Notes under the pieces: generated by a model
The model's database searches: none
What the model was told of the DNA's origin: nothing
Seen by the model: only the letters and a program-made list of their open reading frames with translations
Assembly (NCBI GenBank): GCA_964568045.1
Contig: CAZMOL010000001.1
Coordinates: forward strand, 2,044 to 55,813
DNA length: 53,770 bases
Source: an uncultured Thermotogae bacterium
Lineage (GTDB): Bacteria > Bipolaricaulota > Bipolaricaulia > UBA7950 > UBA9294
Direction of reading: 5' to 3'
Program-made: the position numbers and the translations under genes
In this document: one piece after another, positions 1,307 through 33,453 of the stretch
How the letters are laid out: every line of letters begins with the position of its first letter
Numbering within the stretch: position 1 is the stretch's first letter

Positions 1307-1468
1307 CTAGCTTTGCTGTTCGAACATGTCTTTGCCGACCCCGCACAGCGGGCACACCCAGCTGTCGGGAAGATCTTCGAACGCCGTGCCGGCCTCGATT
1401 CCGTTGTCGGGATCACCGATCGCTGGCTCGTAGACATACCCGCAAACAGTACACACCCATTTCTCCAT
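1307..1468 (-). CDS. rubredoxin (53 aa, below the ORF-track size cut-off)
   Basis: Hand translation of the minus strand gives [53 protein letters not shown]. It has the two CxxCG / CPxCG knuckles. ATG is at 1466..1468 and the TAG stop at 1307..1309. It starts 2 nt after the flavin reductase stop. Confidence 0.9.
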
Positions 1469-1470
1469 GA

Positions 1471-1986
1471 TCAGCTCCTTTTTCTGATCGTCTCTCGGTA
1501 CTCGTTGTAGGTCAGTGGCTTCCCTTCCTCCCTCGTACCGGCACGCTCAACCTCGGCGACAAACAGCGAGTGCGTCTCAAGATCGAGCGTCATCTCCGAA
1601 AGGACGCGACACTCGTAAAACGCCACCGCGTTGGGAAGAATCGGGGCGCCGATTGGCCCCAGCTCATAGGCGATGTCCTCAAACTTGTCCACCGTGCGTC
1701 CCGATTGGAAACCGAAGTGTTTGATCACCTCCGGACATCGCTGATCCTCCCTGTCGAGGACGTTGACGACGAATTGGCCAGTCTCGGCGATCATCTCGTG
1801 GGTGAGCGATCCCTTGTTGACCCCGATCGCAATCCGCGGCGGTGCGTTTGTTACCTGCATCAGTGCGTCGAGACACTGACCGTTCAAGCGATCGCCGGAT
1901 GCGGCGGTGAGAATGTACAAGCCGTGTGTCACCTGAAACAGCGCCTGGTTCAACTTCCCGGAGTCGGTTGCGACGGTGAATGCCAT
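1471..1986 (-). CDS. flavin reductase-like FMN-binding protein (candidate NAD(P)H:rubredoxin reductase partner)
   Basis: ORF 1471..2022 has a flavin-reductase-domain-like sequence ([23 protein letters not shown]...[12 protein letters not shown]). Start set to ATG 1986 (MAFTVATD), preceded by GGAGGT. Confidence 0.8.
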
Positions 1987-2011
1987 CCTACCTCCACTTT
2001 TTGTCAAAGCC

Positions 2012-2536
2012 CTACGCGGCACTTTCTTCTTCCGCAGCCGGTTCCACTGCCGTGCGGGTTCCCAGCTCGCGGTCGAGCATGAGCAGTCCGGTTCCCGAGT
2101 CGCCGACCTGCTCCAGCATCTGCACCACCCTCGACGTCGAGGCCTCTTCCTCCACCTGTTCGGTCACGAACCACTGCAGCATGATGCTTGCTGCGTGATC
2201 CCCTTCCTCGGCCGCTGTGTTCACGAGATCGTTGATCTTTCCGGTGATGAACTGCTCGTGTTCGTAGGCCGCTTGGAACGCCTCGAGCGGTGAGGACCAT
2301 TCTTTCTTCGGTTGAGCCAACGCGTGCAGCTCGACCCGTCCGTCACGCTCGGTGATGTGACTGAAGAATCGCATTGCGTGTCCAACCTCTTCCTGCGTCT
2401 GCACCCGCATCCACTGTGCCATCCCTTCCGCGCCGGTCGACTCGAAATACGCGACCGTGGAAAGATAGAGATACGCCGATTCAAGCTCGTGCTTGATCTG
2501 CTCGTTCATCGCATCCTGCATGCGTTTACCGATCAT
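2012..2536 (-). CDS. ferritin (non-haem, bacterial Ftn type)
   Basis: N-terminus MNEQIKHELESAYLYLSTVAYF... and EEVGHAMRF match ferritin-like diiron ligand patterns; 174 aa. Confidence 0.85.
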   Translation of the reverse strand: MIGKRMQDAMNEQIKHELESAYLYLSTVAYFESTGAEGMAQWMRVQTQEEVGHAMRFFSHITERDGRVELHALAQPKKEWSSPLEAFQAAYEHEQFITGKINDLVNTAAEEGDHAASIMLQWFVTEQVEEEASTSRVVQMLEQVGDSGTGLLMLDRELGTRTAVEPAAEEESAA

Positions 2537-2602
2537 CGGGTCCTCCTTCTCGCGACAGTGTTCGCCGCGCTCTTTCTCCGTTGAGCACTATACCGCAGGT
2601 TC

Positions 2603-3175
2603 TCACCAATTCTCGGCAAGCAATTCGAAGTGCGCCTGCTCGTGAGCGCAGGCCGGGCACTCCTGCGGTGCCTCGGTCCCCTCATGAAGGTACCCACAGT
2701 TGCGACACCGCCACACGACCGGCTGGTCCTTCTTGAACACCGTTTTCTTCTCGACGTTCGCAAGCAGGCCCAGATAACGTCGTTCGTGCTGCTTCTCAGC
2801 CACCGCAATCGCTTCGAATACGTCTGCGATCTCGCCCAATCCTTCTTCACGCGCTACTTTGGCAAAGTCCGGATACATGCTTTCCCACTCGTGGTGCTCG
2901 CCACCGGCGGCGGCCTTCAGGTTCTGCGCTGTCGTCCCGATCACGCCGGCAGGAAACACCGCTTGAACTTCGACCTCTCCCCCTTGCAGAAACTTGAACA
3001 ATCGCTGGGCGTGTTCCTTCTCCTGATTGGCCGTCTCCTCAAAGATCGCTTGAATCTGCACAAAACCGTCCTTCTTTGCCTGACTGGAGAAGTATGTGTA
3101 CCGATTGCGTGCCTGCGATTCACCGGCAAACGCGGTCAGCAGATTCTTCTCGGTCCGAGTTCCCTTCAACTCCAT
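2603..3175 (-). CDS. rbr: rubrerythrin
   Basis: 190 aa. N-terminal ferritin-like diiron domain (TEKNLLTAFAGESQARNRY...EKEHA) plus a C-terminal rubredoxin-like CRNCG...CPAC domain. Confidence 0.95.
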   Translation of the reverse strand: MELKGTRTEKNLLTAFAGESQARNRYTYFSSQAKKDGFVQIQAIFEETANQEKEHAQRLFKFLQGGEVEVQAVFPAGVIGTTAQNLKAAAGGEHHEWESMYPDFAKVAREEGLGEIADVFEAIAVAEKQHERRYLGLLANVEKKTVFKKDQPVVWRCRNCGYLHEGTEAPQECPACAHEQAHFELLAENW

Positions 3176-3260
3176 AGCATCCTCCTTTTTGCTCGCTTGG
3201 AGAGCATTTGTTTTTCCTAAATTTCCAACTCATTTCGGTTCCTACAACGTTGGGTCTTGT

Positions 3261-4055
3261 TCACCGTTGACATTGCGGACAGAGGCACGTCGACCGCCCC
3301 CCTTGCACGATCCGCTCGATCGTTTTCCCGCAGCGTTCACACGGTTCACCATGCCGTCCGTAGATCGAGAGGTGATTCTGGAACCTTCCTTTGTCACCCT
3401 CCGAATTTCGATAATCGGAGACGCTTGTACCGAAAGTCGTCCCCATTTGTTCGATGGCTTCACTCAGGACGTCAATGACGCTGCGGTGAAGTGCGGCCAC
3501 TTGCGCGGGACTGAGGGTGTTCGCGGCTCGGCGCGGATCGATTCCGGCTCGCCACAACGCCTCTGCAGCGTAGATGTTGCCGATGCCGGCAATCTTTTTC
3601 TGATCCATCATCACGAGCTTGATCGGTGTGCGCGAGGAAGCGGTAAGCTCGGCCAGTGTTTCCACCGAAAACTGCGCACTCAGTGGCTCAACGCCGAGTA
3701 AGTGGTTGAAGCCCTGCGGAGAGTACGTCACCGTCCCCAACCGGCGCGGGTTGACGAAATAGATGGCCTCACCACTGGTCAGGTGCAGGACCAATCGAGT
3801 GTACTTCGCTTCGTCTGGGTCTTGCACGCGTACTAGCCGTCCCGACATCCGCAAATGGACGATCAACGATCCCCGATTCGCCAGATTCAGTACGATGTAC
3901 TTTCCACGGCGTTTGATTGACTCGATTCGTGCCCCAACGATCGCATCAGCAGGGACGTCGAGGCGTGGGTCGTGCACGTCCACCGCCGAGATGTGCGAAC
4001 CACTGAGACTACCTAAGCCACGTACGAGGGTTTCGACTTCAGGCAGTTCTGGCAT
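3261..4055 (-). CDS. mutM: formamidopyrimidine-DNA glycosylase
   Basis: Starts MPELPEVE (catalytic N-terminal Pro after Met removal) and ends with a C-terminal zinc finger CxxC...CPQC. Start set to ATG 4055, not the upstream 4070. Confidence 0.9.
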   Translation of the reverse strand: MPELPEVETLVRGLGSLSGSHISAVDVHDPRLDVPADAIVGARIESIKRRGKYIVLNLANRGSLIVHLRMSGRLVRVQDPDEAKYTRLVLHLTSGEAIYFVNPRRLGTVTYSPQGFNHLLGVEPLSAQFSVETLAELTASSRTPIKLVMMDQKKIAGIGNIYAAEALWRAGIDPRRAANTLSPAQVAALHRSVIDVLSEAIEQMGTTFGTSVSDYRNSEGDKGRFQNHLSIYGRHGEPCERCGKTIERIVQGGRSTCLCPQCQR

Positions 4056-4096
4056 GTCCGCTCCGATCATCGAACACGAAAAGGATCACATATTGT

Positions 4097-4531
4097 TTAA
4101 GAATCATTCTCATCTCCAGCTTGATCCGTACGACACTCTGCACAGATTCCGTACAGGTACGTATTCACGGATTCGACGAGGTTACCGAGAATCTCATCCC
4201 CGGGCCGGATTGGGCAAGGCAGGTCCACGTCAATCAAATCGCCACACGTCCGGCAGAGGAAGTGTGGATGCGGATTTGGGTTGTAGTCATAGTGTGCGGC
4301 TTCACGAGCGATGGTCAGTTCCCGAATTGCCCCCGCCTTCTTCAACGCATCGAGCACGTTGTACACGGTGGCCTTGGCGATCGATGGAAAACGTCTCCTC
4401 ACCTCTTGATAGGCCTGCTCGGCGGTGGGATGGGTGTCGGTCTCCTCCAGGAATTCCAGCACGGCCAGCCGCTGGATCGTGGGGACGAGCTCCAGTTGCC
4501 GTAATCTCTCCAAACGCCCCTCGTTGTCCAT
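4097..4531 (-). CDS. Fur-family metalloregulator, PerR-like by context
   Basis: 144 aa. Winged-helix N-terminus (RLAVLEFL...HPTAEQAYQ), HxH region and two CxxC pairs (CRTCG, CAEC). First gene of the oxidative-stress string. Confidence 0.85.
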   Translation of the reverse strand: MDNEGRLERLRQLELVPTIQRLAVLEFLEETDTHPTAEQAYQEVRRRFPSIAKATVYNVLDALKKAGAIRELTIAREAAHYDYNPNPHPHFLCRTCGDLIDVDLPCPIRPGDEILGNLVESVNTYLYGICAECRTDQAGDENDS

Positions 4532-4540
4532 ATTAGAACG

Positions 4541-4569
4541 ATTATAAAGTAATACGGACTTTAAAGCAA
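4541..4569 (-). promoter_or_regulatory. sigma70-like promoter giving a leaderless or near-leaderless transcript of the Fur/PerR-like gene
   Basis: Minus strand reads TTGCTT (4569..4564), a 17-nt spacer, then TATAAT (4546..4541). The ATG at 4531 lies only 9 nt downstream of the -10. No Shine-Dalgarno is present. Confidence 0.45.
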
Positions 4570-4779
4570 GGTCGGGAGGATGTAAATCCGTAGCGGTGAA
4601 CCAGATACCTCCTCGGTCTTTCTTGGTTCAAAGCGATTTGCTTGTGGCGAACAAAATGTACGGTCCCGTTGCCATCCAGATTCATGCCGGCGAGAGGGGG
4701 GACTCGGCAACTTGATTCCGTCCTGGACATTCGTTAAGATTCTTCGGTACTCAACGGCAATATTCATGATCGATACGAT

Positions 4780-5058
4780 TTGGAAGAGGTGGTAGCGATT
4801 CCTAATATTCGCTCGGCTAAGAAGCGCCTGCGGCAAAGCGAGAAACGGCGGGGGCTCAATCGCGCAAGAAAAGCAGCGTTGAAACGGGTCATCAAGCAGA
4901 TCAGAGTGCACATTGCTTCTGGTGACAGGGAAGCGGCAGTCGCTTTGCTTCCGCAGTTTGCCAAAGCGGCCGATAAGGCGGCCCAGCACCACGCAATTCA
5001 CAAAAACAAGGCAAGCCGCATCAAATCGCGGTGGATGAAGAAAGTTCACTCGCTTTAG
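4780..5058 (+). CDS. rpsT: 30S ribosomal protein S20
   Basis: Contains PNIRSAKKRLRQSEKRRGLNRARKAALKRVIK, typical of S20. The exact start is uncertain: TTG 4780 or in-frame GTG 4789. GGAAGAGG overlaps this region. Confidence 0.85.
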   Translation: MEEVVAIPNIRSAKKRLRQSEKRRGLNRARKAALKRVIKQIRVHIASGDREAAVALLPQFAKAADKAAQHHAIHKNKASRIKSRWMKKVHSL

Positions 5059-5071
5059 GGGAGGCGCTGAA

Positions 5072-5974
5072 ATGCGGCACTACGATTTCCTCGGCAAGAC
5101 GAAGTACTTCGTTCCGATCTCCATCTTTCTAGTTGCAGTATCCATTGTCATCTTGATTCCGCAGCTGAGAGGTCTGAGACCGGGAATCGATTTCACCGGT
5201 GGAACCGAATTTACAGTCAAGTTTGAAACAGCGGTGGAAACGGCCGAGTTGCGTGGCTTGCTGGCTGAGATTCCGGCAGAGGGAACCGATCTGTCGACAA
5301 GTGTGATCCAGGATGTTGCCGGGAAGAACACCAAGGTGGTGACCACTCAGCTCGACGTGGAGACCCATCAGAGAGTGATCGACCAAATCGAGGAGGCCCT
5401 GCGAGAACGATTTCCCGTTGAGGACGTCAGCCGCCGCTCGATCGGCCAACAGGTGAGCCGCGAGCTTGCCGCAAAAGGATGGCAGGCAGTACTGCTGGCG
5501 ATTGTGGTCGTCCTGGTCTATATCTCTTGGCGATTCCGTCTTCGCTTCGCAATAGGCGCGGTTGCCGCGATTCTTCACGATGTGATCATTGCGTTGGGGC
5601 TATTCGCCATCTTCCGGATCGAAGTGAACCTGCCGACGATCGCTGCCTTCCTCACAATCGTTGGTTACTCCCTCAATGATACAATCGTAATCTATGACCG
5701 CATCCGCGAGAACCTCAAGATTGACAAAAAAGGCAAGATCTTCGATATCATAAACAGAAGCGTTAATCAGTCACTAAGTCGCACGCTCAACACGTCGTTT
5801 ACCACCTTCGTTCCGGTGATTATCCTGTTCGTGTTCGGTGGATCGGTGCTCCGCGGTTTCTCGCTGGCACTGCTGATCGGCGTAATCGTGGGGACCTATT
5901 CCTCGATGTACATTGCCAATCCGATCCTGTACGCCTGGACCCTCAAGGCCGGGGGCGCAAAGAAGAGTAAATGA
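5072..5974 (+). CDS. secF: protein translocase subunit SecF
   Basis: 300 aa with 6 TM segments and SecF-type motifs (GIDFTGGT, LHDVIIALG, GYSLNDTIVIYDRIREN). RBS GGGGAGG. Confidence 0.9.
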   Translation: MRHYDFLGKTKYFVPISIFLVAVSIVILIPQLRGLRPGIDFTGGTEFTVKFETAVETAELRGLLAEIPAEGTDLSTSVIQDVAGKNTKVVTTQLDVETHQRVIDQIEEALRERFPVEDVSRRSIGQQVSRELAAKGWQAVLLAIVVVLVYISWRFRLRFAIGAVAAILHDVIIALGLFAIFRIEVNLPTIAAFLTIVGYSLNDTIVIYDRIRENLKIDKKGKIFDIINRSVNQSLSRTLNTSFTTFVPVIILFVFGGSVLRGFSLALLIGVIVGTYSSMYIANPILYAWTLKAGGAKKSK

Positions 5975-7695
5975 GATCGCTTATCCGCAAGGGAAGGGAT
6001 TGGAAAATCGCTCCCCTGCCGGATAACTCTCTAATTCAAGAGATCCAAGCCACGCTTCACTGTGCCCGTCCTTTTGCCATTCTTCTTGCTCGACGGGGTG
6101 GCCAGAATTGGGAGCGGCTGATCGATCCTGGCTTGCACAACCTGCACTCTCCATTTGGGCTTCTAGGCGTGGAGGAGGGCGTTTCCCGGCTGGTCGAGGC
6201 GATCAACAATGAGGAACGACTCTTCATCCACGGAGACTTCGACGTCGACGGGTTAACCGGTGCTACGTTGCTCTACCAGAGCCTTTTCCCACTGTTTCCC
6301 AAGGGAAGGATCAAGGTGGACGTGGGGGATCGGGGCCGTGGGCACGGGCTGTCGCCCGAATTCGTATCTCGCGTGATAACCGAAGGATTCACCGTGGTCC
6401 TCACAGTTGATTGCGGCGTCTCCAACGGTGAGGAAATCGATCAGTTGAGGCAGGCAGGGATTGACACGATCGTCACCGACCATCACATTCCCCCGCCTCA
6501 GCTTCCCCCCGCCGTTGCGGTCATCGATCCTCAAAGGCCGGGTGAGACCTATCCCAACCGGTATCTTGCCGGAGTGGGGGTAGCGTACAAGCTGATCTGC
6601 GCGCTGTACGAACGCGTGGGACGTCCGATCCCTCGTCAGTTTCTCGATCTGGTTGCCTTGGGAACACTCGCTGACCTGGTGCCGCTTAGCGAGGAGGGGG
6701 AGGTGGAGAATCGGGCCATGGTGCGAGAGGGGTTCTGTCTCCTCTCACGGGGAGAGGGATCGTCGTTGGGCCTGAGAGTGCTGATGGAGAGGCTCTCCAT
6801 CAATCCGAAGAAGCTCACCGCCACCGATGTCAGCTACGTCATCGCCCCCAAGCTGAATGCAGCGAACCGGACCGGAGATCCCAAAGTGGCCTTCCTCCTC
6901 CTTACCACAGGTGTATCCAAGCGGGCCGAGTACCTCACGGAGGTTCTCCTGGACTACAATCGTGATCGGGAGATCGCTCAAGATGACCTCATCTCCCAGG
7001 CAGAGGAGCGAATGGCCGAGGAAGGGACTGATCCAACGGGCGATGGGATGATCATCCTACATGGGAAGTACTGGAATGAAGGAATTCTTGGGCTCGTCGC
7101 CTCCAATCTGGCTGATCGCTATCGTGTTCCCACGATCGTTATCTCACAGGGGGATCGGGTGAGCCGTGCTTCGTGCCGTAGCGTGGATGGTTTCGATATG
7201 GCGGCTTGCCTTGAACAACACGCGGAGCTTCTGCTTCATTACGGCGGACACGAGATGGCTGCCGGCTTTTCTGCGTCCAACGACGTCTTACCTGAGCTGC
7301 GCAAACGGCTGCTGATCTACATCGCCGAGCGGCGACCGGCTCAGCAGTCCGATGCGAGCAAGTGGATCGATGCACAGACTGCAATCGATCAGATCGACAT
7401 GCGGCTCTACACCAACATCCGCTCGCTTTCTCCATACGGCCCAGGCAACCCTGCCCCGCTTCTCCTCCTTGCCGACTGCGCGTTTGAGGGACTCTCCGTG
7501 GTCGGCGCACGACGGCAGCACCTCAAGGGCAAGGTGGTACAGGACGGCTCGCTTCTACCGTTCATCGCCTTTCGGATGGGGCGGTACCTCAACACCTTTG
7601 AGGAAGCCCGTGGGGCCTCCCTCGTGTTCCGTGCTGGCTTTGACAACTGGCAGGGGTCGGTCCAGCTGGAAGTGGTGGACCTGGTGGGCGACTGA
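5971..7695 (+). CDS. recJ: single-stranded-DNA-specific exonuclease RecJ
   Basis: DHH-family motifs HGDFDVDGLTGA, DCGV, TDHH and GGHEMAAG. ATGA overlap with the secF stop. Confidence 0.9.
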   Translation: MRSLIRKGRDWKIAPLPDNSLIQEIQATLHCARPFAILLARRGGQNWERLIDPGLHNLHSPFGLLGVEEGVSRLVEAINNEERLFIHGDFDVDGLTGATLLYQSLFPLFPKGRIKVDVGDRGRGHGLSPEFVSRVITEGFTVVLTVDCGVSNGEEIDQLRQAGIDTIVTDHHIPPPQLPPAVAVIDPQRPGETYPNRYLAGVGVAYKLICALYERVGRPIPRQFLDLVALGTLADLVPLSEEGEVENRAMVREGFCLLSRGEGSSLGLRVLMERLSINPKKLTATDVSYVIAPKLNAANRTGDPKVAFLLLTTGVSKRAEYLTEVLLDYNRDREIAQDDLISQAEERMAEEGTDPTGDGMIILHGKYWNEGILGLVASNLADRYRVPTIVISQGDRVSRASCRSVDGFDMAACLEQHAELLLHYGGHEMAAGFSASNDVLPELRKRLLIYIAERRPAQQSDASKWIDAQTAIDQIDMRLYTNIRSLSPYGPGNPAPLLLLADCAFEGLSVVGARRQHLKGKVVQDGSLLPFIAFRMGRYLNTFEEARGASLVFRAGFDNWQGSVQLEVVDLVGD

Positions 7696-7716
7696 GTCTT
7701 GCCTATGCTGTTATTG

Positions 7717-9078
7717 TCACTTCCCCACGCAGAAGCGAGCGAAGATCTGGTCGAGCACGTCCTCCGAGACGTCGATGCCCTGTAGCTCCCCGGTCACGAT
7801 GTAGGCACTGCGCAGCTCTTCTGCAATGATGTCGGGGGGGGATCCGGACCGTGCCGTCGCGATTGCCCGGTCAAGATGGCCACCCGCCCGCCCCAACAGA
7901 TCTTGCTCCCAAGTATTGAGGAGGAAGATCGCTCCCCAGCTCTGTACTTTCCCTCCTAGGAGGAGTTCCAGGAGCGCTTGTGACAACCGGTCGACCCCGC
8001 TGCCGAGCTTGGCTGAGATCTCGTGGACGGACTTCCACGGGCCCGATGAGGTTGGCTCAATCGCCGCTGGCAGATCGGATTTGTTGAGGACAAGCAGGGT
8101 CGGCTTCTCCCAGGTGCGCCCAAGAAGCCGGTGGTCTTGTTCATCGAGTGGGGCGCTGCGGTCGAGAATAAGAAGGAGCAGATCAGCGCGCGTGATCGCC
8201 GCATTTGTCCGCTCGATCCCTGCCTCCTCCAGAGTGTCGGTTGGCGTGCGTAGTCCAGCAGTATCGATGAGCCGCACCGGAATCCCGCCAATCGCTGCCT
8301 CCTCCTCGACTGTGTCGCGAGTCGTCCCAGGAATCGGGGTAACGATCGCCCGCTCCTCTGCCAGGAGGGCGTTTAGCAGGGTCGACTTGCCGACGTTCGG
8401 TCGGCCGATGATGGCGATGGTGAACCCTTCACGGACGATTCGCCCCTGCTCCGCCTGGGTGAGGAGAAGCTCGACGCGGTTGACCAGTTCGGTCAGCGGC
8501 GGAACGATTGCTCCTGTTTCGGCCTCCACATCGGGGAAATCGATCTCTACCTCGATCTGCGCAAGAAGCCCCCCGATCTGTTCTCGAATCCGACTGATCG
8601 CGTTCGAGAAGCGCCCGCCCAGTTGCTCCACTGCGGCCTCCAGGCCGAGCCTTGTCTTGGCCTTCACGATATCGACAACGGCTTGGGCCTGATCGAGAGA
8701 GATGCGGCCGTTCAGAAAGGCTCGCTTGGTGAACTCTCCTCTTTCCGCAAGTCGCGCACCCTGCTTTAGCATGACGCTTAGAACCGCCTGGGTGGCAAGG
8801 AATCCTCCGTGACAGTTGATCTCGACTACATCCTCGCGGGTGTACGTACGGGGCGCGCGCATCACCGATACCAGTACCTCGTCGATGCGTCTCCCTTTCG
8901 AGACGACAAATCCGTGGTGTAGGGTATGGGTGGGCACCTGTGACAGAGGGATCCTATCGGTGGGGTGAAAGATTGCCTCGGCAAGGGGGATTGCTTGTGG
9001 ACCGCTGATGCGCACAATCCCTATTCCCCCCTCGCCCAAGGGGGTTGAGAGTGCTGCGATCGTGTCCCCCTCCATCAT
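7717..9078 (-). CDS. mnmE: tRNA modification GTPase MnmE
   Basis: N-terminus DTIAALSTP, G-domain GRPNVGKSTLLN...DTAG...NKSD, and the C-terminal FCVGK tetrapeptide. Confidence 0.95.
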   Translation of the reverse strand: MMEGDTIAALSTPLGEGGIGIVRISGPQAIPLAEAIFHPTDRIPLSQVPTHTLHHGFVVSKGRRIDEVLVSVMRAPRTYTREDVVEINCHGGFLATQAVLSVMLKQGARLAERGEFTKRAFLNGRISLDQAQAVVDIVKAKTRLGLEAAVEQLGGRFSNAISRIREQIGGLLAQIEVEIDFPDVEAETGAIVPPLTELVNRVELLLTQAEQGRIVREGFTIAIIGRPNVGKSTLLNALLAEERAIVTPIPGTTRDTVEEEAAIGGIPVRLIDTAGLRTPTDTLEEAGIERTNAAITRADLLLLILDRSAPLDEQDHRLLGRTWEKPTLLVLNKSDLPAAIEPTSSGPWKSVHEISAKLGSGVDRLSQALLELLLGGKVQSWGAIFLLNTWEQDLLGRAGGHLDRAIATARSGSPPDIIAEELRSAYIVTGELQGIDVSEDVLDQIFARFCVGK

Positions 9079-9527
9079 GGGTTGTCCGGTTCGATCACAA
9101 CCCGCCGGCCTTCGCCTTGACCGATGCTGAAGGTCTTTATGCCCGGAAAGTTTGCGAGGGTGAGATGAATGGTGCGGCGTTCGTGCGAAGGCATTGGATT
9201 CAGTCGGATCCGCTTGCGTTCCTGGCGGGCCGATTCGGCAGCGCTCAAGGCGAAACTGATCAACTCGCCGCGCCTACGTTTCACCGCTCCATTCACATCG
9301 ATGATGATCTCACATTCCCTGCCGGTCTTGTGACGCAGGTGAAGGTGCATCATCTGCTGTAATGCATGGAGGATAGGCCGTTCCTCGGGGAGAGAGAAGA
9401 GGCTTCCGGTGAGATTCACGTACAGATCCTCGGAGGACTCTTCCTCTACTGCGAAGGTTACCTCTTCCTCCAGAATGTCGAGGAGAGTCTTAAGATAGGT
9501 TTCAATCTCCTTCTTGGCGGTCTCCAT
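9075..9527 (-). CDS. jag: Jag/KhpB-type RNA-binding protein (Jag_N, KH, R3H)
   Basis: Sits between yidC and mnmE. The C-terminus ERRTIHLTL...GEGRRVVI is R3H-like. Start set to ATG 9527 (METAKKEIETYL), which overlaps the yidC 3' end by 26 nt. The longer 9593 start is less plausible. Confidence 0.75.
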   Translation of the reverse strand: METAKKEIETYLKTLLDILEEEVTFAVEEESSEDLYVNLTGSLFSLPEERPILHALQQMMHLHLRHKTGRECEIIIDVNGAVKRRRGELISFALSAAESARQERKRIRLNPMPSHERRTIHLTLANFPGIKTFSIGQGEGRRVVIEPDNP

Positions 9528-19082: not shown

Positions 19083-19180
19083 CTATCCGCCGAGGTTAAA
19101 GTCGATCCGCGCTCCCGCGGCCGGGCAGATGCCAGGGCGAAGGCAGGTACTGCTGGATAATCCGGCCTCGCGGAGGCAGA
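19083..19180 (-). pseudogene. truncated relic of a paralogue of the 146-aa secreted protein gene at 29548..29988
   Basis: About 50 nt is near-identical to 29556..29605 (gtcga.ccgcgctcccgcggccgggc.gatgcc). The encoded tail ...GICPAAGARIDFNLGG compares with ...GIGPAAGARFDFDLSR. No signal peptide or N-terminal part is present. Confidence 0.4.
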
Positions 19181-19409
19181 AAGGCAGGGTATACGGCGCG
19201 CTTTCAAAAAGATGTCCCCGCAGCTCTGACTGCGAGGTCTGATCGGTGTTGATGTGGAGGATCAACCGGGTCGGAGAAGTAGAGGGGGAAGGCTCAATGA
19301 CGAGATGAACGTTCCTTGTGATCGACCTTCCTGCGGAGGTCGTTATGTGCGAAGAGTGAAACGGAGGCGCCTGACGCTTTTGGCTCGCCGCGGCCTCGAT
19401 GATTCCTGT

Positions 19410-29263: not shown

Positions 29264-29420
29264 AGTGATTTCGGTGGAAATTGAGGGGTATCTCTGAAAG
29301 CGCGTGCCGTTTCTGATGGGTGTCTCTCGATTTAACTTCAAGGTAGCCTTTTTGCCATCCTGCATTTGAATCCGGTATGGCGAAGACATCTCTTCTTCAA
29401 GGCGCTTCAACTTCTTGACT

Positions 29421-29547
29421 ACCTAGCCTCGTGCACAACGTGGTGACCGTGTGTTTCGAAGAGTAAGGGGTTCTGGACTGAGGTGGCTAGAATGAGATAG
29501 CACCAAGAATGAAGACCTGACCACCGCAGAGACCCGAACTGCTCCCT
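29421..29547 (+). repeat. island repeat, copy B
   Basis: agcctcgtgcacaacgtggtgaccgtgtgtttcgaagagtaaggggttctggactgaggtggc matches copy A at about 80% over the 35-nt core by hand count. A tail shared with copies D and E follows. Confidence 0.7.
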
Positions 29548-29988
29548 TTATCTACTCAGGTCGAAGTCGAACCGCGCTCCCGCGGCCGGGCCGATGCCGG
29601 TCGGGCTGACGTCCGGGGAGATGGTAACCCCGAGCTCTCCGAAGGCCGTGAACGGCGTGTCGCCGATCGGAACCTCTATCCCCACCAGGGCGAAGAAGGC
29701 GTGCGCGACGATGTCACCAGGAAGAAAGGCGAGCCCCACCCCCAGCCCGGCGAGCGACCGAAGCGTCAACGGACCGAGTTCCAATTGCCCAGGATAAACC
29801 TTGGCGGAAGCCACGAGCGGCCCGGCACCGGACAGGCCGACCTCCACTGCGAACCTCTGAAACAGTGTGAGTTGAACGGACACCGCGGTCGGTACTCTCC
29901 CCACGATCCCAAGCTCCAGCACTTGGGCCGCAACCCCCACCGCGACGATCCCAATCAGTGCGATGGCTACCACAACGTGCCTGCGCAT
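29548..29988 (-). CDS. hypothetical secreted Gly/Ala/Val-rich protein (beta-rich)
   Basis: 146 aa with N-terminal signal-like MRRHVVVAIALIGIVAVGVAA and alternating hydrophobic pattern. Flanked by repeat copies B and C. A truncated paralogue lies at 19083..19180. Confidence 0.55.
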   Translation of the reverse strand: MRRHVVVAIALIGIVAVGVAAQVLELGIVGRVPTAVSVQLTLFQRFAVEVGLSGAGPLVASAKVYPGQLELGPLTLRSLAGLGVGLAFLPGDIVAHAFFALVGIEVPIGDTPFTAFGELGVTISPDVSPTGIGPAAGARFDFDLSR

Positions 29989-30123
29989 GACGTTTCCCTC
30001 CCTTTATCGTGCCTGTCTCGTGTCCCTTCAGCAAGGCATGTCTTTCCTTGTTTGAATCAAGCGCGACATCATGATACATGGAGTTTATCCACGAAGAAGA
30101 CCGAGGGCGAAGAAACCTGACTG

Positions 30124-30235
30124 CCCCAGGCTCGTGGGGCTTGTCCACAACGTGGGGAGCGTGTGTGTCATGGAGGAAGAGACTCTGGGCTGAGGCTCTT
30201 ACCAGCTTGGTTGGCTACAAGAAAGACGGCGCCCT
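30124..30235 (+). repeat. island repeat, copy C
   Basis: ccccaggctcgtggggcttgtccacaacgtggggagcgtgtgtgtcatggaggaagagactctgggctgaggctc, same orientation as A and B. Confidence 0.7.
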
Positions 30236-30290
30236 GCTGTTGTGATGCGAGGCTTGACGGGACACGGTAGAAGGGTCCCCAATGTTCTAC

Positions 30291-30620
30291 TTAGATGGAC
30301 GGATTGTGACTACGGATGAATCTGAGAGCCGACTGTAGGCCACCTCTGATTCTTGCTTGCATATCTGCTTCTGGATGCCACGCTCCGTGCTTGTGGATGA
30401 GAAGGTTTCTCGTCTTCCGGAAGGAGTGTAATTCACCCCTTTCTTGATCCGAAATTGTGCCTAGTACCCATGCCATGTCTATCAGATTGAATAGACTCAA
30501 CAGAGGATGTGGCCGGTCGCCTTCAGTACTTAGGTCATCGATCTTACGCCTACGCAGCATTCGCTCGTCTTGTTGAGGTGGTTGGCCAACGATCAGATCA
30601 ACTAGGACTCGTTCTACCAA
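30291..30620 (-). CDS. small HEPN-like protein (RNxxxH motif); true start may be upstream (to 30752)
   Basis: FRKTRNLLIHKHG; R-N-L-L-I-H is encoded at 30393..30410. It is predicted all-alpha by composition. It lies immediately downstream of the channel gene, with AAGGAGG at 30759..30765. TTG 30620 is the first canonical start, but the frame stays open back to 30764. Confidence 0.6.
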   Translation of the reverse strand: MVERVLVDLIVGQPPQQDERMLRRRKIDDLSTEGDRPHPLLSLFNLIDMAWVLGTISDQERGELHSFRKTRNLLIHKHGAWHPEADMQARIRGGLQSALRFIRSHNPSI

Positions 30621-30781
30621 GACCTGAGCATGAGCCGCTCCTTCTATATACTTCTTCTCTTTTAGAGCCTTTTCGATTGTCGATCTTGACCAATATCTGA
30701 TTACTCCAACTTTTTCTTGAGCCTGGCCTTCATCACAGATGTGCTTTGATATAACAGGCCTCCTTTAAGAGCCAGTGTGGA

Positions 30782-32458
30782 TCACCGCATGAACTTGCGG
30801 CTGATGACAAGGACCGTCAAGGCCATCATAATCCCGCCGAGGACCGCTTCTGTAGCGGTTAATGCACTTCCCAATCCAGGCATGGGGCGGATGTCTCCGT
30901 AGCCCAACGTTGTGAACGTGATTATGCTGAAGTAAAGCGCCCGACCGAAGCTAAATGGGTATTCCAATCCTGGAGAAAAAACATCGAAAAGTTGTACGCC
31001 ACGCAAGATGAGCAGATAGTAGATGCTTGTGAAGCTTCCAATTAAAACAGCCCAAGTCGTGAAAAGCCGGGAGAGACTAGCTCCGTAGGCTGTGGGCCAT
31101 CTAAGGAAGAGACAGTCGGGAAGCCACTGGAAAAGGAGCGCGAGGAGCCTAAGTAGAAGATTGTAGTAATTATTCCTATGCCACCACTTTCCTTTCAAGG
31201 GAATTCTTAGTGGGGATAGCCGTGAAAGGCGTTCGAAGTAGTACGCTGCATCGGCAGCGGTTGTTTTCCCTTGATTTGCGAATGCTCTTTGGGCAAAGTG
31301 CCAGAACTGGTAACGGGTGGGAATATCGCATAAGGATATGCCGGTTCGATCTCGACGGCAGAACAGAATAGTAGGTTTCGCTTCACCAAGCTCCAAACCC
31401 GCAGCCTCGCATGAAGAGAATAAAGTGCTGTCTTTGAATGTTGCCTTTTCAAAAGAAATGGATCTCCTAAAAATCGCTGTGTGGAAGTGAGCCTTTTCAT
31501 CTATGGTGGCATGAGAAAACGAGGTAAACCCGTCAATCGTTGCTTCATAGAAGGATATCTGTCCGAGTATCCTGGTCCTGAGAAACCAAGCACTTCCATC
31601 GATGTGGGAGCCACTGAAGGAGATTTTTTTCTTGACGAGCGCATCCACAAAACTCACACCTCTCCCCGTCCTGGCTGCATCCAAGATCACGTCTCCTTCG
31701 ATTGTTGCTCCAGAGAAGGAAGTCTCCTCTTTGATAATGGCGCTGTGAAGTGAAACGCGGCCACCTAGTATTGCCTCGTCTAGATGTAAGGATTCTCCGA
31801 TTGTAGCACTCGAAAAAGTGGCATCCCCGAGGATCTTGGCTCCAGAACACGTAACGCTTCGTCCAACATCCGCGCGACTGCATGAGAGGTCCCCGGATAT
31901 TTTCGCATTAGTCAGAGAGATACTCCTACCGATCGAGCTCTCAGAAAAATCAGCATCTTTGCCTATCGTAGCTTCATCAAAGGAAACGGATCCCTCAATA
32001 TGTGACCGAAAGACCCAAGCAGTCTTTTCAACACTTATTTTCTGGAAGAATGCATAGCCATTGATTTTGGCAAATGAAAGGTGCAGTTCGCCCCTAATCA
32101 TGGCCCCAGAGCACTCGAGATGGCCTTTCACTTCAATTCCCCGCAGATTGGTTCCTTCAGGGACTTTTGCCTCAGCGAGGGTAAGCTCTTGATCGATCAC
32201 TGCGGGGAGGCAGAAGCGATCAGACACTGTCGGGCTACCACCAACCTCCATGCCAATTGGGAAAGAGTATCCCCTGAAATTGTATTTCTGATTCCCGGCA
32301 TGATAGCGCCCATCTTCATTTATTTGCTCGTATAATCTCTCCTTAAACTTATCGATATCTTTTTGTCCAAGCGCGTGAAAGATACAGTACTTCGATCCAG
32401 GCTCTGCAGGTACTCCACAGCGGTAATTGAGATCAAGTTCACTGCGCCACTCGCACAT
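30782..32458 (-). CDS. beta-helix (pentapeptide-like repeat) protein fused to a 2-TM K+ channel pore
   Basis: 558 aa. N-terminal C2-x11-C14-x10-C25-x2-H28; about 270 aa of roughly 20-residue repeats (ATIGKDADF / AKISGDLSC / AKILGDATF / ATIEGDVIL ...). The C-terminal pore FSIITFTTLGYGD has TTLGYGD at 30893..30913. RBS GGAAGGAGGG. Visibly lower G+C. Confidence 0.85.
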   Translation of the reverse strand: MCEWRSELDLNYRCGVPAEPGSKYCIFHALGQKDIDKFKERLYEQINEDGRYHAGNQKYNFRGYSFPIGMEVGGSPTVSDRFCLPAVIDQELTLAEAKVPEGTNLRGIEVKGHLECSGAMIRGELHLSFAKINGYAFFQKISVEKTAWVFRSHIEGSVSFDEATIGKDADFSESSIGRSISLTNAKISGDLSCSRADVGRSVTCSGAKILGDATFSSATIGESLHLDEAILGGRVSLHSAIIKEETSFSGATIEGDVILDAARTGRGVSFVDALVKKKISFSGSHIDGSAWFLRTRILGQISFYEATIDGFTSFSHATIDEKAHFHTAIFRRSISFEKATFKDSTLFSSCEAAGLELGEAKPTILFCRRDRTGISLCDIPTRYQFWHFAQRAFANQGKTTAADAAYYFERLSRLSPLRIPLKGKWWHRNNYYNLLLRLLALLFQWLPDCLFLRWPTAYGASLSRLFTTWAVLIGSFTSIYYLLILRGVQLFDVFSPGLEYPFSFGRALYFSIITFTTLGYGDIRPMPGLGSALTATEAVLGGIMMALTVLVISRKFMR

Positions 32459-32905
32459 GGTCCGAAGCCCTCCTTCCTTCTATTCATAGACTGTCTTGTC
32501 CAAGGGTAGTCATCTCGTAAGTCCTAACATCTGCGGTGGTATCGTGTCAAGTTGTCTGTTCGTAAATCCCAGTGACACAATCTCTATTTCCAACCGGACC
32601 AGCCTGTTGAATGCCTTACTCCAGCAACTTCAACCTCCCAAGTGACCTTTCAGAACGTTGTCCCGCACGCTGACAGCCACACGCTGGTCGAGGCGGAGGC
32701 GCTGGTGCCGGTGGCTTCAAGTGTTACTTCGACGGTGACCGCTCCGCCACTGGGGCAGTAGAGGCTGTAGCTCCTGGTCCGGGTCAGTGTTAGGACAAAT
32801 ACGTACGAAACAAGACCCTCTACTCCTCCTAAACTCCTCAAACGCCAGAACGGTCTGGTTGCCAGACTCCGGGCAGCGTGTAAGATGTAGTCAAGGAGGT
32901 GGAGG

Positions 32906-33343
32906 ATGGATAGAACACTTACGGGATGGCATGGAGTGGTGTTGGCATTGATGGTATTGGCAGTGGTTGGGTCTTGTGCGGTCGCCGCCGCAGAATCCGG
33001 CCGCTTCTACTCGGTGGTGTATGACTCTTCCGGCAGCCGGGATACTGGGGTTGTCGTCACAAATGCGAGCGACAGAGATACTTCCTATACCCTAGAGCTG
33101 TATGATTCCTTGGGGAGTTCCCTCGTTGCGGTGACCGAGTCGCTTGCCCCTTTTGCGTCCAACTGGCACGACTTGACTGAGACGATTGGCGAACTGGGCG
33201 AAGGTGTCGATTGGTCCCTTGCGTGGGGCCTGTGCATCGTGCGGCCGCTGATCTATGCCACGGATCTCCTGATCGTCTCAGTGGAGGTGTACGTGGAGAA
33301 GAATCTGGTAAGCGTGTACCAGGTTGAGGCCTCCCACTACTGA
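32906..33343 (+). CDS. hypothetical secreted protein
   Basis: 145 aa with a signal-peptide-like N-terminus (VVLALMVLAVVGSCAVAAAES). RBS AGGAGGTGGAGG. No family recognised. Confidence 0.5.
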   Translation: MDRTLTGWHGVVLALMVLAVVGSCAVAAAESGRFYSVVYDSSGSRDTGVVVTNASDRDTSYTLELYDSLGSSLVAVTESLAPFASNWHDLTETIGELGEGVDWSLAWGLCIVRPLIYATDLLIVSVEVYVEKNLVSVYQVEASHY

Positions 33344-33453
33344 ATGCTTCCTTGAGAGTCATAGTGTCTTCGCGCTTGTCGCGAGGAAACTACATCGGAT
33401 AAGACGTCCGGATGAGACCGGGACTGCTTGGTCCTTTGGCCGCTCAGCTGCTC

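Follow-up and report, generated by a model that had tools for sequence, protein, structure and literature searches.

A probable stand-alone HalA-like channel gene with a zinc knuckle beside a rare solo HEPN gene in a low-GC block of an uncultured Thermotogae genome

The stretch of DNA considered here, referred to as the window, comprises 53,770 nt of contig CAZMOL010000001.1 (assembly GCA_964568045.1, positions 2,044 to 55,813 of the forward strand) from an uncultured Thermotogae bacterium assigned by GTDB to the Bipolaricaulota. Within it is a block of low G+C content containing exactly two genes, one encoding a K+ channel with a large cytoplasmic beta-helix and the other a small protein of the HEPN superfamily. 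A first-pass annotation, made from the sequence alone, had proposed that the two form an undescribed conflict or defence module; instead, the locus is more probably a stand-alone channel resembling HalA, an effector of the Hailong anti-phage system, and bearing a zinc knuckle, beside a rare solo HEPN gene. The features of the locus are listed below, with the basis of the assignment in brackets (ORF, open reading frame; TM, transmembrane helix; GC3, G+C content at third codon positions).

30290..32500, no strand: low-GC block holding exactly two genes (windowed G+C and GC3)
30782..32458, minus strand: 558-aa channel gene, HalA-like in architecture (ORF, Pfam, homologues, AlphaFold, Foldseek)
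32469..32475, minus strand: ribosome-binding site (AAGGAGG) of the channel gene, 10 nt ahead of its ATG (direct reading of the sequence)
32375..32458, minus strand: N-terminal CCCH zinc-knuckle-like cluster, C2, C14, C25 and H28 (alignment)
31331..32281, minus strand: cytoplasmic four-sided beta-helix of 11-residue repeats, residues about 60-376 (AlphaFold, autocorrelation)
31103..31324, minus strand: conserved helical segment between beta-helix and membrane, residues 379-452 (model and alignment)
30788..31075, minus strand: two-TM K+ channel pore, with TM1 at 462-485, pore helix at 504-517 and TM2 at 529-557 (Ion_trans_2, model)
30893..30913, minus strand: selectivity filter TTLGYGD, T516-D522 (sequence and alignment)
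30291..30752, minus strand: small HEPN-family gene, 153 aa from ATA 30750-30752 or 109 aa from TTG 30620 (translation, homologues, AlphaFold, PDB folds)
30759..30765, minus strand: ribosome-binding site (AAGGAGG) for the small gene, 16 nt past the stop codon of the channel gene (sequence)
30393..30410, minus strand: putative HEPN catalytic motif, R115-N116-x3-H120 (alignment)

Measured in 300 nt windows, the G+C content is 0.47-0.52 within the block and 0.55-0.65 outside it, and the dip coincides with both genes, being confined to about 30290-32500. The channel gene has a G+C content of 0.488 and the HEPN gene one of 0.472, compared with 0.579 for the whole window; the corresponding GC3 values are 0.50 and 0.44, whereas those of the flanking genes lie at 0.62-0.83. 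Both genes have a foreign composition, bearing out the earlier description of an AT-richer pair, and we interpret the block of approximately 2.2 kb as an islet gained by horizontal transfer. A search of the window for tRNA genes gave none, no integrase was present among the flanking ORFs scanned against Pfam, and no flanking direct repeats marking the boundaries of the islet were found in the window. The flanking 146-aa and 145-aa ORFs had no Pfam match, Rfam and Tandem Repeats Finder returned no RNA family and no relevant array over 29400-33400, and a promoter and terminator scan of the locus gave no signals above chance.

The 558-aa channel ORF consists of the three parts originally described, an N-terminal Cys/His cluster, a repeat region and a pore. 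A word-indexed search of 5.8 billion proteins recovered 24 homologues besides the window protein, 21 of which were aligned with it to give a set of 22 sequences. The cluster has the spacing C2-x11-C14-x10-C25-x2-H28, as first reported, and all four residues are near-invariant across this alignment; more distant relatives retain the form C-x2-C-x10-C-x2-H (seen in locus L040), and a match of the channel N-terminus to Pfam zf-TRM13_CCCH fell below threshold (E 0.041). The repeat region matches Pentapeptide_3 (PF13576; 92.4 bits against a cut-off of 27, E 2e-26), and the self-identity of the channel is around 0.22 at lags of 11, 22, 33 and 44 residues and around 0.06 elsewhere. Hence the period is 11, with 22 residues and four strands in each coil of the beta-helix in the AlphaFold model (pLDDT 85-96 in this region, and 84.8 for the full-length monomer), rather than the roughly 20 residues suggested previously. 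The number of repeats differs among the homologues, which are between 380 and 604 aa long.

Between the beta-helix and the membrane the model has helices at residues 379-395, 399-412 and 428-452, a segment in which D403 and Y407 are invariant in the alignment; R410, R413, W445 and D448, together with R453 and W454 immediately beyond it, are near-invariant. This segment would couple the beta-helix to the membrane pore for gating. The pore itself matches Ion_trans_2 (PF07885; 43.8 bits against a cut-off of 22.5, E 2.5e-11) and has the TTLGYGD filter between its two TMs, exactly where it had been placed from the sequence; T517, L518, G519 and G521 are invariant, and T516, Y520 and D522 near-invariant. 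Thus the Pfam matches and the AlphaFold model back the original description of the larger protein as a beta-helix fused to a K+ channel pore, and 23 of the 24 homologues have both Pfam domains.

The protein differs from well-known relatives of each part. It shares with the pentapeptide-repeat proteins (Rfr fold; Qnr and MfpA) the Pentapeptide_3 match and the four-sided beta-helix of the model, but its repeat period is 11 rather than 5, with 22 rather than 20 residues per coil, and its beta-helix domain is fused to a membrane pore. Similarly, it has the same pore helix, TxGYGD filter and two TMs as the prokaryotic two-TM K+ channels KcsA and KirBac, and a profile of the channel family matched K2P, KirBac, Shaker and KcsA structures in the PDB (E 1e-9 to 1e-6). 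Unlike in these channels, however, the regulatory domain is N-terminal and composed of the zinc knuckle and the beta-helix of 11-residue repeats, and is not of the RCK, Kir or cyclic-nucleotide-binding type; the gene is also compositionally foreign, and its family often island-borne.

The closest full-length structural match is to a defence protein. As set out in two reports (PMC13434031; PMC13276650), Hailong (Tan et al., Nature 2025, cited through PMC13434031 and PMC13586616) is a two-gene anti-phage system in which the nucleotidyltransferase HalB makes oligodeoxyadenylate, which is bound by the cytoplasmic crown of the tetrameric channel HalA and keeps it closed; phage exonuclease strips the DNA from HalA, opening the channel and depolarising the cell, and HalA is toxic on its own. 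When the AlphaFold model of the window channel was compared with the PDB using Foldseek, the top match was 9nyi_A, which is HalA with oligodeoxyadenylate (E 3.5e-4), in an alignment spanning 346 columns of a chain of 333 residues; this was the sole PDB match with an E value below 1e-3. The monomer model and this alignment both have the architecture of HalA, in which an N-terminal cytoplasmic crown precedes a C-terminal pore like that of K+ channels, and the gene shares with HalA an accessory, island-borne character. The likeness is structural only, as the cytoplasmic part (residues 60-460) matches nothing in the PDB by sequence, and by sequence the channel is not an equivalog of HalA. Weak matches to the NCBIfam HalA model were nevertheless obtained from 13 of the 22 family members, the best having an E value of 9.7e-5. 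A search of the BFVD viral fold library with the channel gave only generic solenoid or pore-only matches.

There are also clear differences from HalA. The window channel is 558 aa long, whereas the HalA model is 338, its N-terminal CCCH zinc knuckle is an additional element, and its beta-helix is longer. According to PMC13434031, HalA causes an influx of Na+, whereas the window channel has the canonical K+ filter TTLGYGD. Furthermore, no HalB nucleotidyltransferase was found at the locus when the flanking ORFs and the 153-aa protein were scanned against Pfam, and none is present among the 25 commonest Pfam families listed for 87 neighbours of channel-family genes. The absence of either window protein from the PADLOC results can be explained by the report that a Hailong-type system, comprising a pentapeptide-repeat/IRK channel and a partner with nucleotidyltransferase-like and HEPN-like domains, escapes both DefenseFinder and PADLOC (PMC13586616). 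The authors of that report equated their system with Hailong; therefore the pairing of such a channel with a HEPN-like partner has a published precedent, and the earlier remark that no described system with this pairing was known is outdated.

The channel family is large and uncharacterised. A genome scan identified seven loci, in Bipolaricaulota metagenome-assembled genomes (MAGs) and MAGs labelled Thermotogae, and a scan of JGI metagenomes at least 358 relatives, of which 80 loci were retained; full-length relatives were looked at in around 45 loci other than the window. The channel had no match in phage genomes by tblastn and none among IMG/VR viral contigs, and tblastn against plasmids gave only generic pentapeptide-repeat proteins of 20-30% identity that lacked the pore. 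Clustering 433 ORFs neighbouring the channel relatives revealed no universal partner gene, nor did any partner recur across the roughly 45 family loci. Tyrosine integrases are found at five of the family's loci and serine recombinases at two. Pfam matches among the 87 neighbours included SLFN_AlbA_2 (3), HEPN PF05168 (2), Phage_integrase (2) and Resolvase (2), whilst PADLOC gave matches to a type IV restriction enzyme (a DUF262 protein), ApeA, PDC-S58, HEC-06, PDC-S20 and PifA-like models in the same set. To these can be added candidate HicA-like, VapC-like, RelE-like and DUF262-type genes, judged by eye from their sequences. One locus (L016) has a tyrosine integrase along with a tRNA-like sequence, and another (L012) an integrase fragment 19 nt from the channel gene in addition to a serine recombinase. 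In a third (L014, 4690-6144), a complete ApeA gene (ApeA_NTD1 and HEPN_Apea domains), a known anti-phage gene, lies approximately 40 nt beyond the channel homologue in convergent orientation. A conflict or defence role is hence plausible for the channel, given the HalA match and these integrase, recombinase, toxin-antitoxin and defence neighbours.

Several of these loci have further points of structure. In L014, a tRNA-like sequence lies upstream of the channel on the reverse strand. The channel relative in L040 is found in an AT-rich island (1401-9102), where it is preceded, in order, by an HNH_5 gene, a gene for a 104-aa protein, a DUF4145/MtlR-like HEPN gene (213 aa), a 72-aa gene and a second HNH_5 gene, and followed by a 202-aa gene, a helix-turn-helix protein and a large serine recombinase. 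Members of a family of around 320 aa that has no Pfam match are encoded directly downstream of channel relatives in three loci (L043, 6506-7471; L072, 3558-4106; L087, 5343-6302), where the gap to the channel is 9-10 nt in L043 and L087, and the two genes overlap by 34 nt in L072; these may be true partners of the channel in this subclade. The same may apply to an AlbA_2/Schlafen-like protein of around 476 aa, the gene for which lies 68 nt upstream of the channel at three loci (L048, L080 and L088). A single metagenome contig (L038) has channel-family paralogues in tandem, at 781-2781 and 3000-4883.

In the loci compared, the channel and the HEPN gene are not adjacent outside the window, and this lack of synteny between their homologues, which the original proposal had named as a result that would refute it, goes against a fixed pair. 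When nine channel loci were searched by tblastn with the HEPN protein and its homologues, the only matches were on the contigs of the window itself (L005-L007). A HEPN-family profile run over 103 loci found the window copies, the HEPN homologues' own loci and one distant relative (E 7.7e-8), the 213-aa protein of L040, the gene for which lies upstream of the channel and is separated from it by 1.1 kb and two genes. In none of the roughly 45 other full-length family loci is the HEPN gene directly downstream of the channel. Contexts of the HEPN gene itself come from five identity look-ups, most of them on short contigs: none of the nearest homologues (46-54% identity) follows a channel. Of these proteins, P0027 follows a 317-aa protein without a Pfam match on two independent contigs; P0026 has no channel C-terminus ahead of it; P0028 comes after a fragment of a gene resembling IstB of IS21, an assignment that rests on sequence alone; and a further family member, P0029, lies near cas1. 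Hence the channel and HEPN gene probably lie side by side without making up a fixed two-gene system, and an obligatory functional coupling between them has no comparative-genomic support.

P0027, the closest full-length homologue, terminates a same-strand cluster (L001, 863-3610) consisting of a 259-aa protein with weak HicB-like, zinc-ribbon and HicA-like matches, a 145-aa protein and the 317-aa protein, the gene for which ends 6 nt before the HEPN gene. This 317-aa protein, for which neither a Pfam match nor a relative in the window was obtained, may be the partner with which this HEPN subfamily is usually found. In L104 (2305-4700), the gene for P0029 closes a run of six small genes on one strand, none with a Pfam match, next to cas1 on the other strand.

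The small gene begins 29 nt after the channel stop codon, in a frame that is open from 30764 to its own stop codon at 30291-30293, and the AAGGAGG reported at 30759..30765, about 16 nt past the channel stop, is confirmed. Its product had been given as 109-153 aa. The lower figure corresponds to the sole canonical start, TTG 30620, whereas the 153-aa version has no ATG, GTG or TTG; as the homologues P0026, P0027 and P0028 align upstream of TTG 30620 (VIRYWS, IEKAL, KYIE, AHAQ), the product is therefore around 153 aa, and the likely start is the ATA at 30750-30752, the only candidate, which is 6 nt after the AAGGAGG. Within the HEPN ORF, in another frame, there is also an ATG at 30630 with an AAGGAG 6 nt upstream (30626-30641), which encodes MLRSW and then a stop; this could be either chance or the remnant of an older start that was followed by a frameshift.

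The protein contains FRKTRNLLIHKHG, within which R-N-x3-H (R115-N116-x3-H120) is present at nt 30393..30410 as originally read. Its family is rare, with 33 representatives at E<=1e-3 among the 1.84 billion representative proteins covered by an exhaustive profile search. Across 18 aligned sequences R115, N116 and E47 are invariant, and H120 is present in 17. The window protein itself reaches no Pfam gathering threshold (its DUF4145 score is 13.2 bits against 23.1, E 0.097). Other family members reach DUF4145 at 3.8e-5, MtlR at 5.9e-6 and HEPN_Swt1 at 3e-4, and also match HepT-like families, RiboL-PSP and Cthe2314, all of which are known as families of the HEPN clan; the Pfam link is consequently transitive, since it is only these other members that attain significance. 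The AlphaFold model (pLDDT 85) is all-alpha, with six helices, and its nearest PDB folds are YggD/MtlR, Csm6, HepT, AF_0298 and TM0613, all with the HEPN fold, these being weak matches (E of 0.023 or more, TM-score about 0.5). On the strength of the conserved motif, the Pfam matches of its relatives and these structural neighbours, we accept the earlier placement of the small protein in the HEPN superfamily, and it would be a dimeric RNase of the toxin or abortive-infection type.

It is similar to other minimal HEPN proteins (DUF4145, the MtlR/YggD fold, HepT and the HEPN domain of Csm6) in its predicted all-alpha fold and R-N-x3-H motif, but its family is distinguished from them by its rarity and its varied neighbours. 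Unlike the situation with HepT of the HEPN-MNT (type VII) toxin-antitoxin systems, there is no adjacent MNT antitoxin gene at the window locus, and no MNT nucleotidyltransferase was found beside the HEPN homologues in L001-L004, L021 and L104. Nor is the protein similar to HalB, having no nucleotidyltransferase domain, and a comparison of the family with NCBIfam found no HalB match or any relevant named family.

The explanation we favour, if by a rather modest degree, is that the low-GC islet represents two conflict-type genes that were acquired together and travel independently in other genomes, with the channel being a stand-alone variant of a HalA-like effector. A number of observations weigh against it. 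The structural match to HalA is modest (TM-score 0.20-0.28, root-mean-square deviation 11.5 Å, 15% identity) and comes from one monomer model, and the match to the HalA equivalog model NF051894 reaches 11.5-12.8 bits against a cut-off of 250, over pore residues 453-558 only, and PADLOC detects neither window protein. The pattern of neighbours, which suggests accessory or defence islands, was counted without a control gene family. Additionally, the canonical filter suits an ordinary K+ channel equally well. Such a channel, regulated by its beta-helix and serving ion homeostasis or membrane potential, with the HEPN gene as an unrelated toxin-like hitch-hiker, is an unlikely alternative in our judgement, but one with which the profile matches to KirBac, KcsA, K2P and Shaker pores would agree. 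In three Bipolaricaulota MAGs (L008-L010), polA, a 71-aa gene and a YbjQ_1-family gene are conserved upstream of the channel, a site that looks vertically inherited; past the channel, however, is a variable stretch with a ribbon-helix-helix gene, an IS21 fragment, a DUF4011 helicase and a deaminase-HATPase_c_4-wHTH protein. In four other loci (L046, L050, L063 and L083), a distant subfamily without the zinc knuckle is encoded 4-24 nt after what was judged, by sequence alone, to be a PfkB-like sugar kinase gene, a context that looks metabolic rather than defence-related. An ordinary channel nevertheless accords poorly with the foreign composition of the gene in the window, with the patchiness of the family, its variable repeat number and its frequent proximity to integrases, recombinases, toxin-antitoxin or defence genes, and with the best full-length structural match being a defence effector rather than a housekeeping channel.

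Lying close together on one strand with identical composition, the two genes would also fit a real operon with a joint function, and the perfect AAGGAGG before the small ORF, together with the fact that the pair makes up the entire low-GC block, could be read in the same way. In such a genuine abortive-infection module, the channel and HEPN RNase would act together, for instance with a HEPN-only partner replacing HalB or with a sensor-channel joined by a second RNase effector. The published Hailong-type system (PMC13586616) provides a precedent, and other HEPN-type genes occur near channel relatives in at least three other loci, being ApeA in L014, the DUF4145/MtlR-like gene in L040 and the PF05168 matches, one of which is taken to be a 141-aa gene beside the L044 channel. 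However, these HEPNs belong to different families and vary in orientation and distance, as in the general co-occurrence of genes in defence islands, and the small protein has neither a nucleotidyltransferase domain nor a HalB match; with the window's arrangement absent from all of the other full-length loci, with the nearest HEPN homologues having other neighbours and with no canonical start codon in the small ORF, we regard this as the least probable of the readings. The start codon also raises the prospect that the small gene is not expressed, which again counts against the favoured explanation: it might be a decaying or silent relic of an earlier toxin-antitoxin or abortive-infection cassette, mutated from ATG to ATA, leaving the channel alone functional. 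No ATG, GTG or TTG exists in the 5' part conserved among homologues, starting at TTG 30620 would drop about 44 conserved residues, and the gene callers of the public contigs left the ORF uncalled. This too is improbable, as the frame is open along its full length with the family-invariant E47, R115 and N116 intact, the AAGGAGG is perfect and 6 nt from the ATA, three contigs, each from a different sample, carry the identical sequence, and a weak near-cognate start would suit a toxic protein.

Under the favoured explanation, that of two independently travelling genes, the channel would assemble as a tetramer with both termini in the cytoplasm, and the crown formed by the zinc knuckle and beta-helix would hold the gate shut through the conserved helical coupler. 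A cue linked to phage infection, such as a ligand being gained or lost, perhaps a nucleic acid held by the knuckle or crown, might then open the pore, and the resulting K+ efflux would collapse the membrane potential and stop growth. Unlike HalA, the channel would work without a HalB nucleotidyltransferase; because there is no HalB, any ligand would have to be part of the phage or have another source. The HEPN protein would act as a dimeric RNase toxin, and, in view of the 29 nt gap, the perfect Shine-Dalgarno sequence and the non-canonical ATA start, its gene is probably co-transcribed with the channel and weakly translated. Coupling of the HEPN protein to the channel is not supported, but may exist at this one locus. 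A bolder version, which we consider possible and advance tentatively, is that the family constitutes a widespread HalB-independent branch of HalA-like suicide channels, functioning as a single-gene defence in which the knuckle and the variable crown sense a phage cue directly, or hold an endogenous nucleic-acid ligand for which there is no dedicated partner enzyme, and K+ efflux kills or arrests the cell; at this locus, a rare HEPN RNase would have been recruited as a second, weakly translated effector.

Hailong provides a case in which a cytoplasmic crown on a tetrameric channel acts as a DNA-gated guard, with HalA needing the product of HalB to stay closed. The family described here, of which there are hundreds of members in sediment and subsurface metagenomes, Bipolaricaulota MAGs included, shares the overall build of HalA, yet departs from it in its zinc knuckle, its canonical K+ filter and its lack of a nucleotidyltransferase partner. 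If its members are defence effectors, then their gating must differ from that of HalA, and the Hailong principle would be widened to a stand-alone form, providing a testable case of immunity through K+ efflux. The locus also serves as a caution, since tight spacing and a common composition made two separately mobile genes resemble a system encoded by an operon.

Some further irregularities were evident in the repeat region of the channel family. In five loci (L029, L078, L090, L093 and L095) the channel is split into two ORFs within or near the repeats, and the homologue P0004 has an odd insert of the GTLTSRPPRSR type at residues of about 280-330, which resembles repeat DNA read in another frame. 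The DNA encoding the repeats may be prone to slippage or misassembly.

Lastly, the pair had been described as lying directly after the third copy, C, of an island repeat. Two copies were found in the window and no third, and the nearest match is approximately 700 nt past the HEPN stop codon rather than adjacent to it. The two copies, at 19084-19133 and 29549-29598, form a direct repeat of 50 nt with 84% identity, 41 nt of which match at 90%. The latter copy constitutes the 3' end of the 146-aa gene (29548..29988, minus strand) that is next after the HEPN gene, and the former the 3' end of a short 60-aa ORF (19083..19265, minus strand); the two products terminate in similar peptides, AAGARFDFDLSR and AAGARIDFNLGG.

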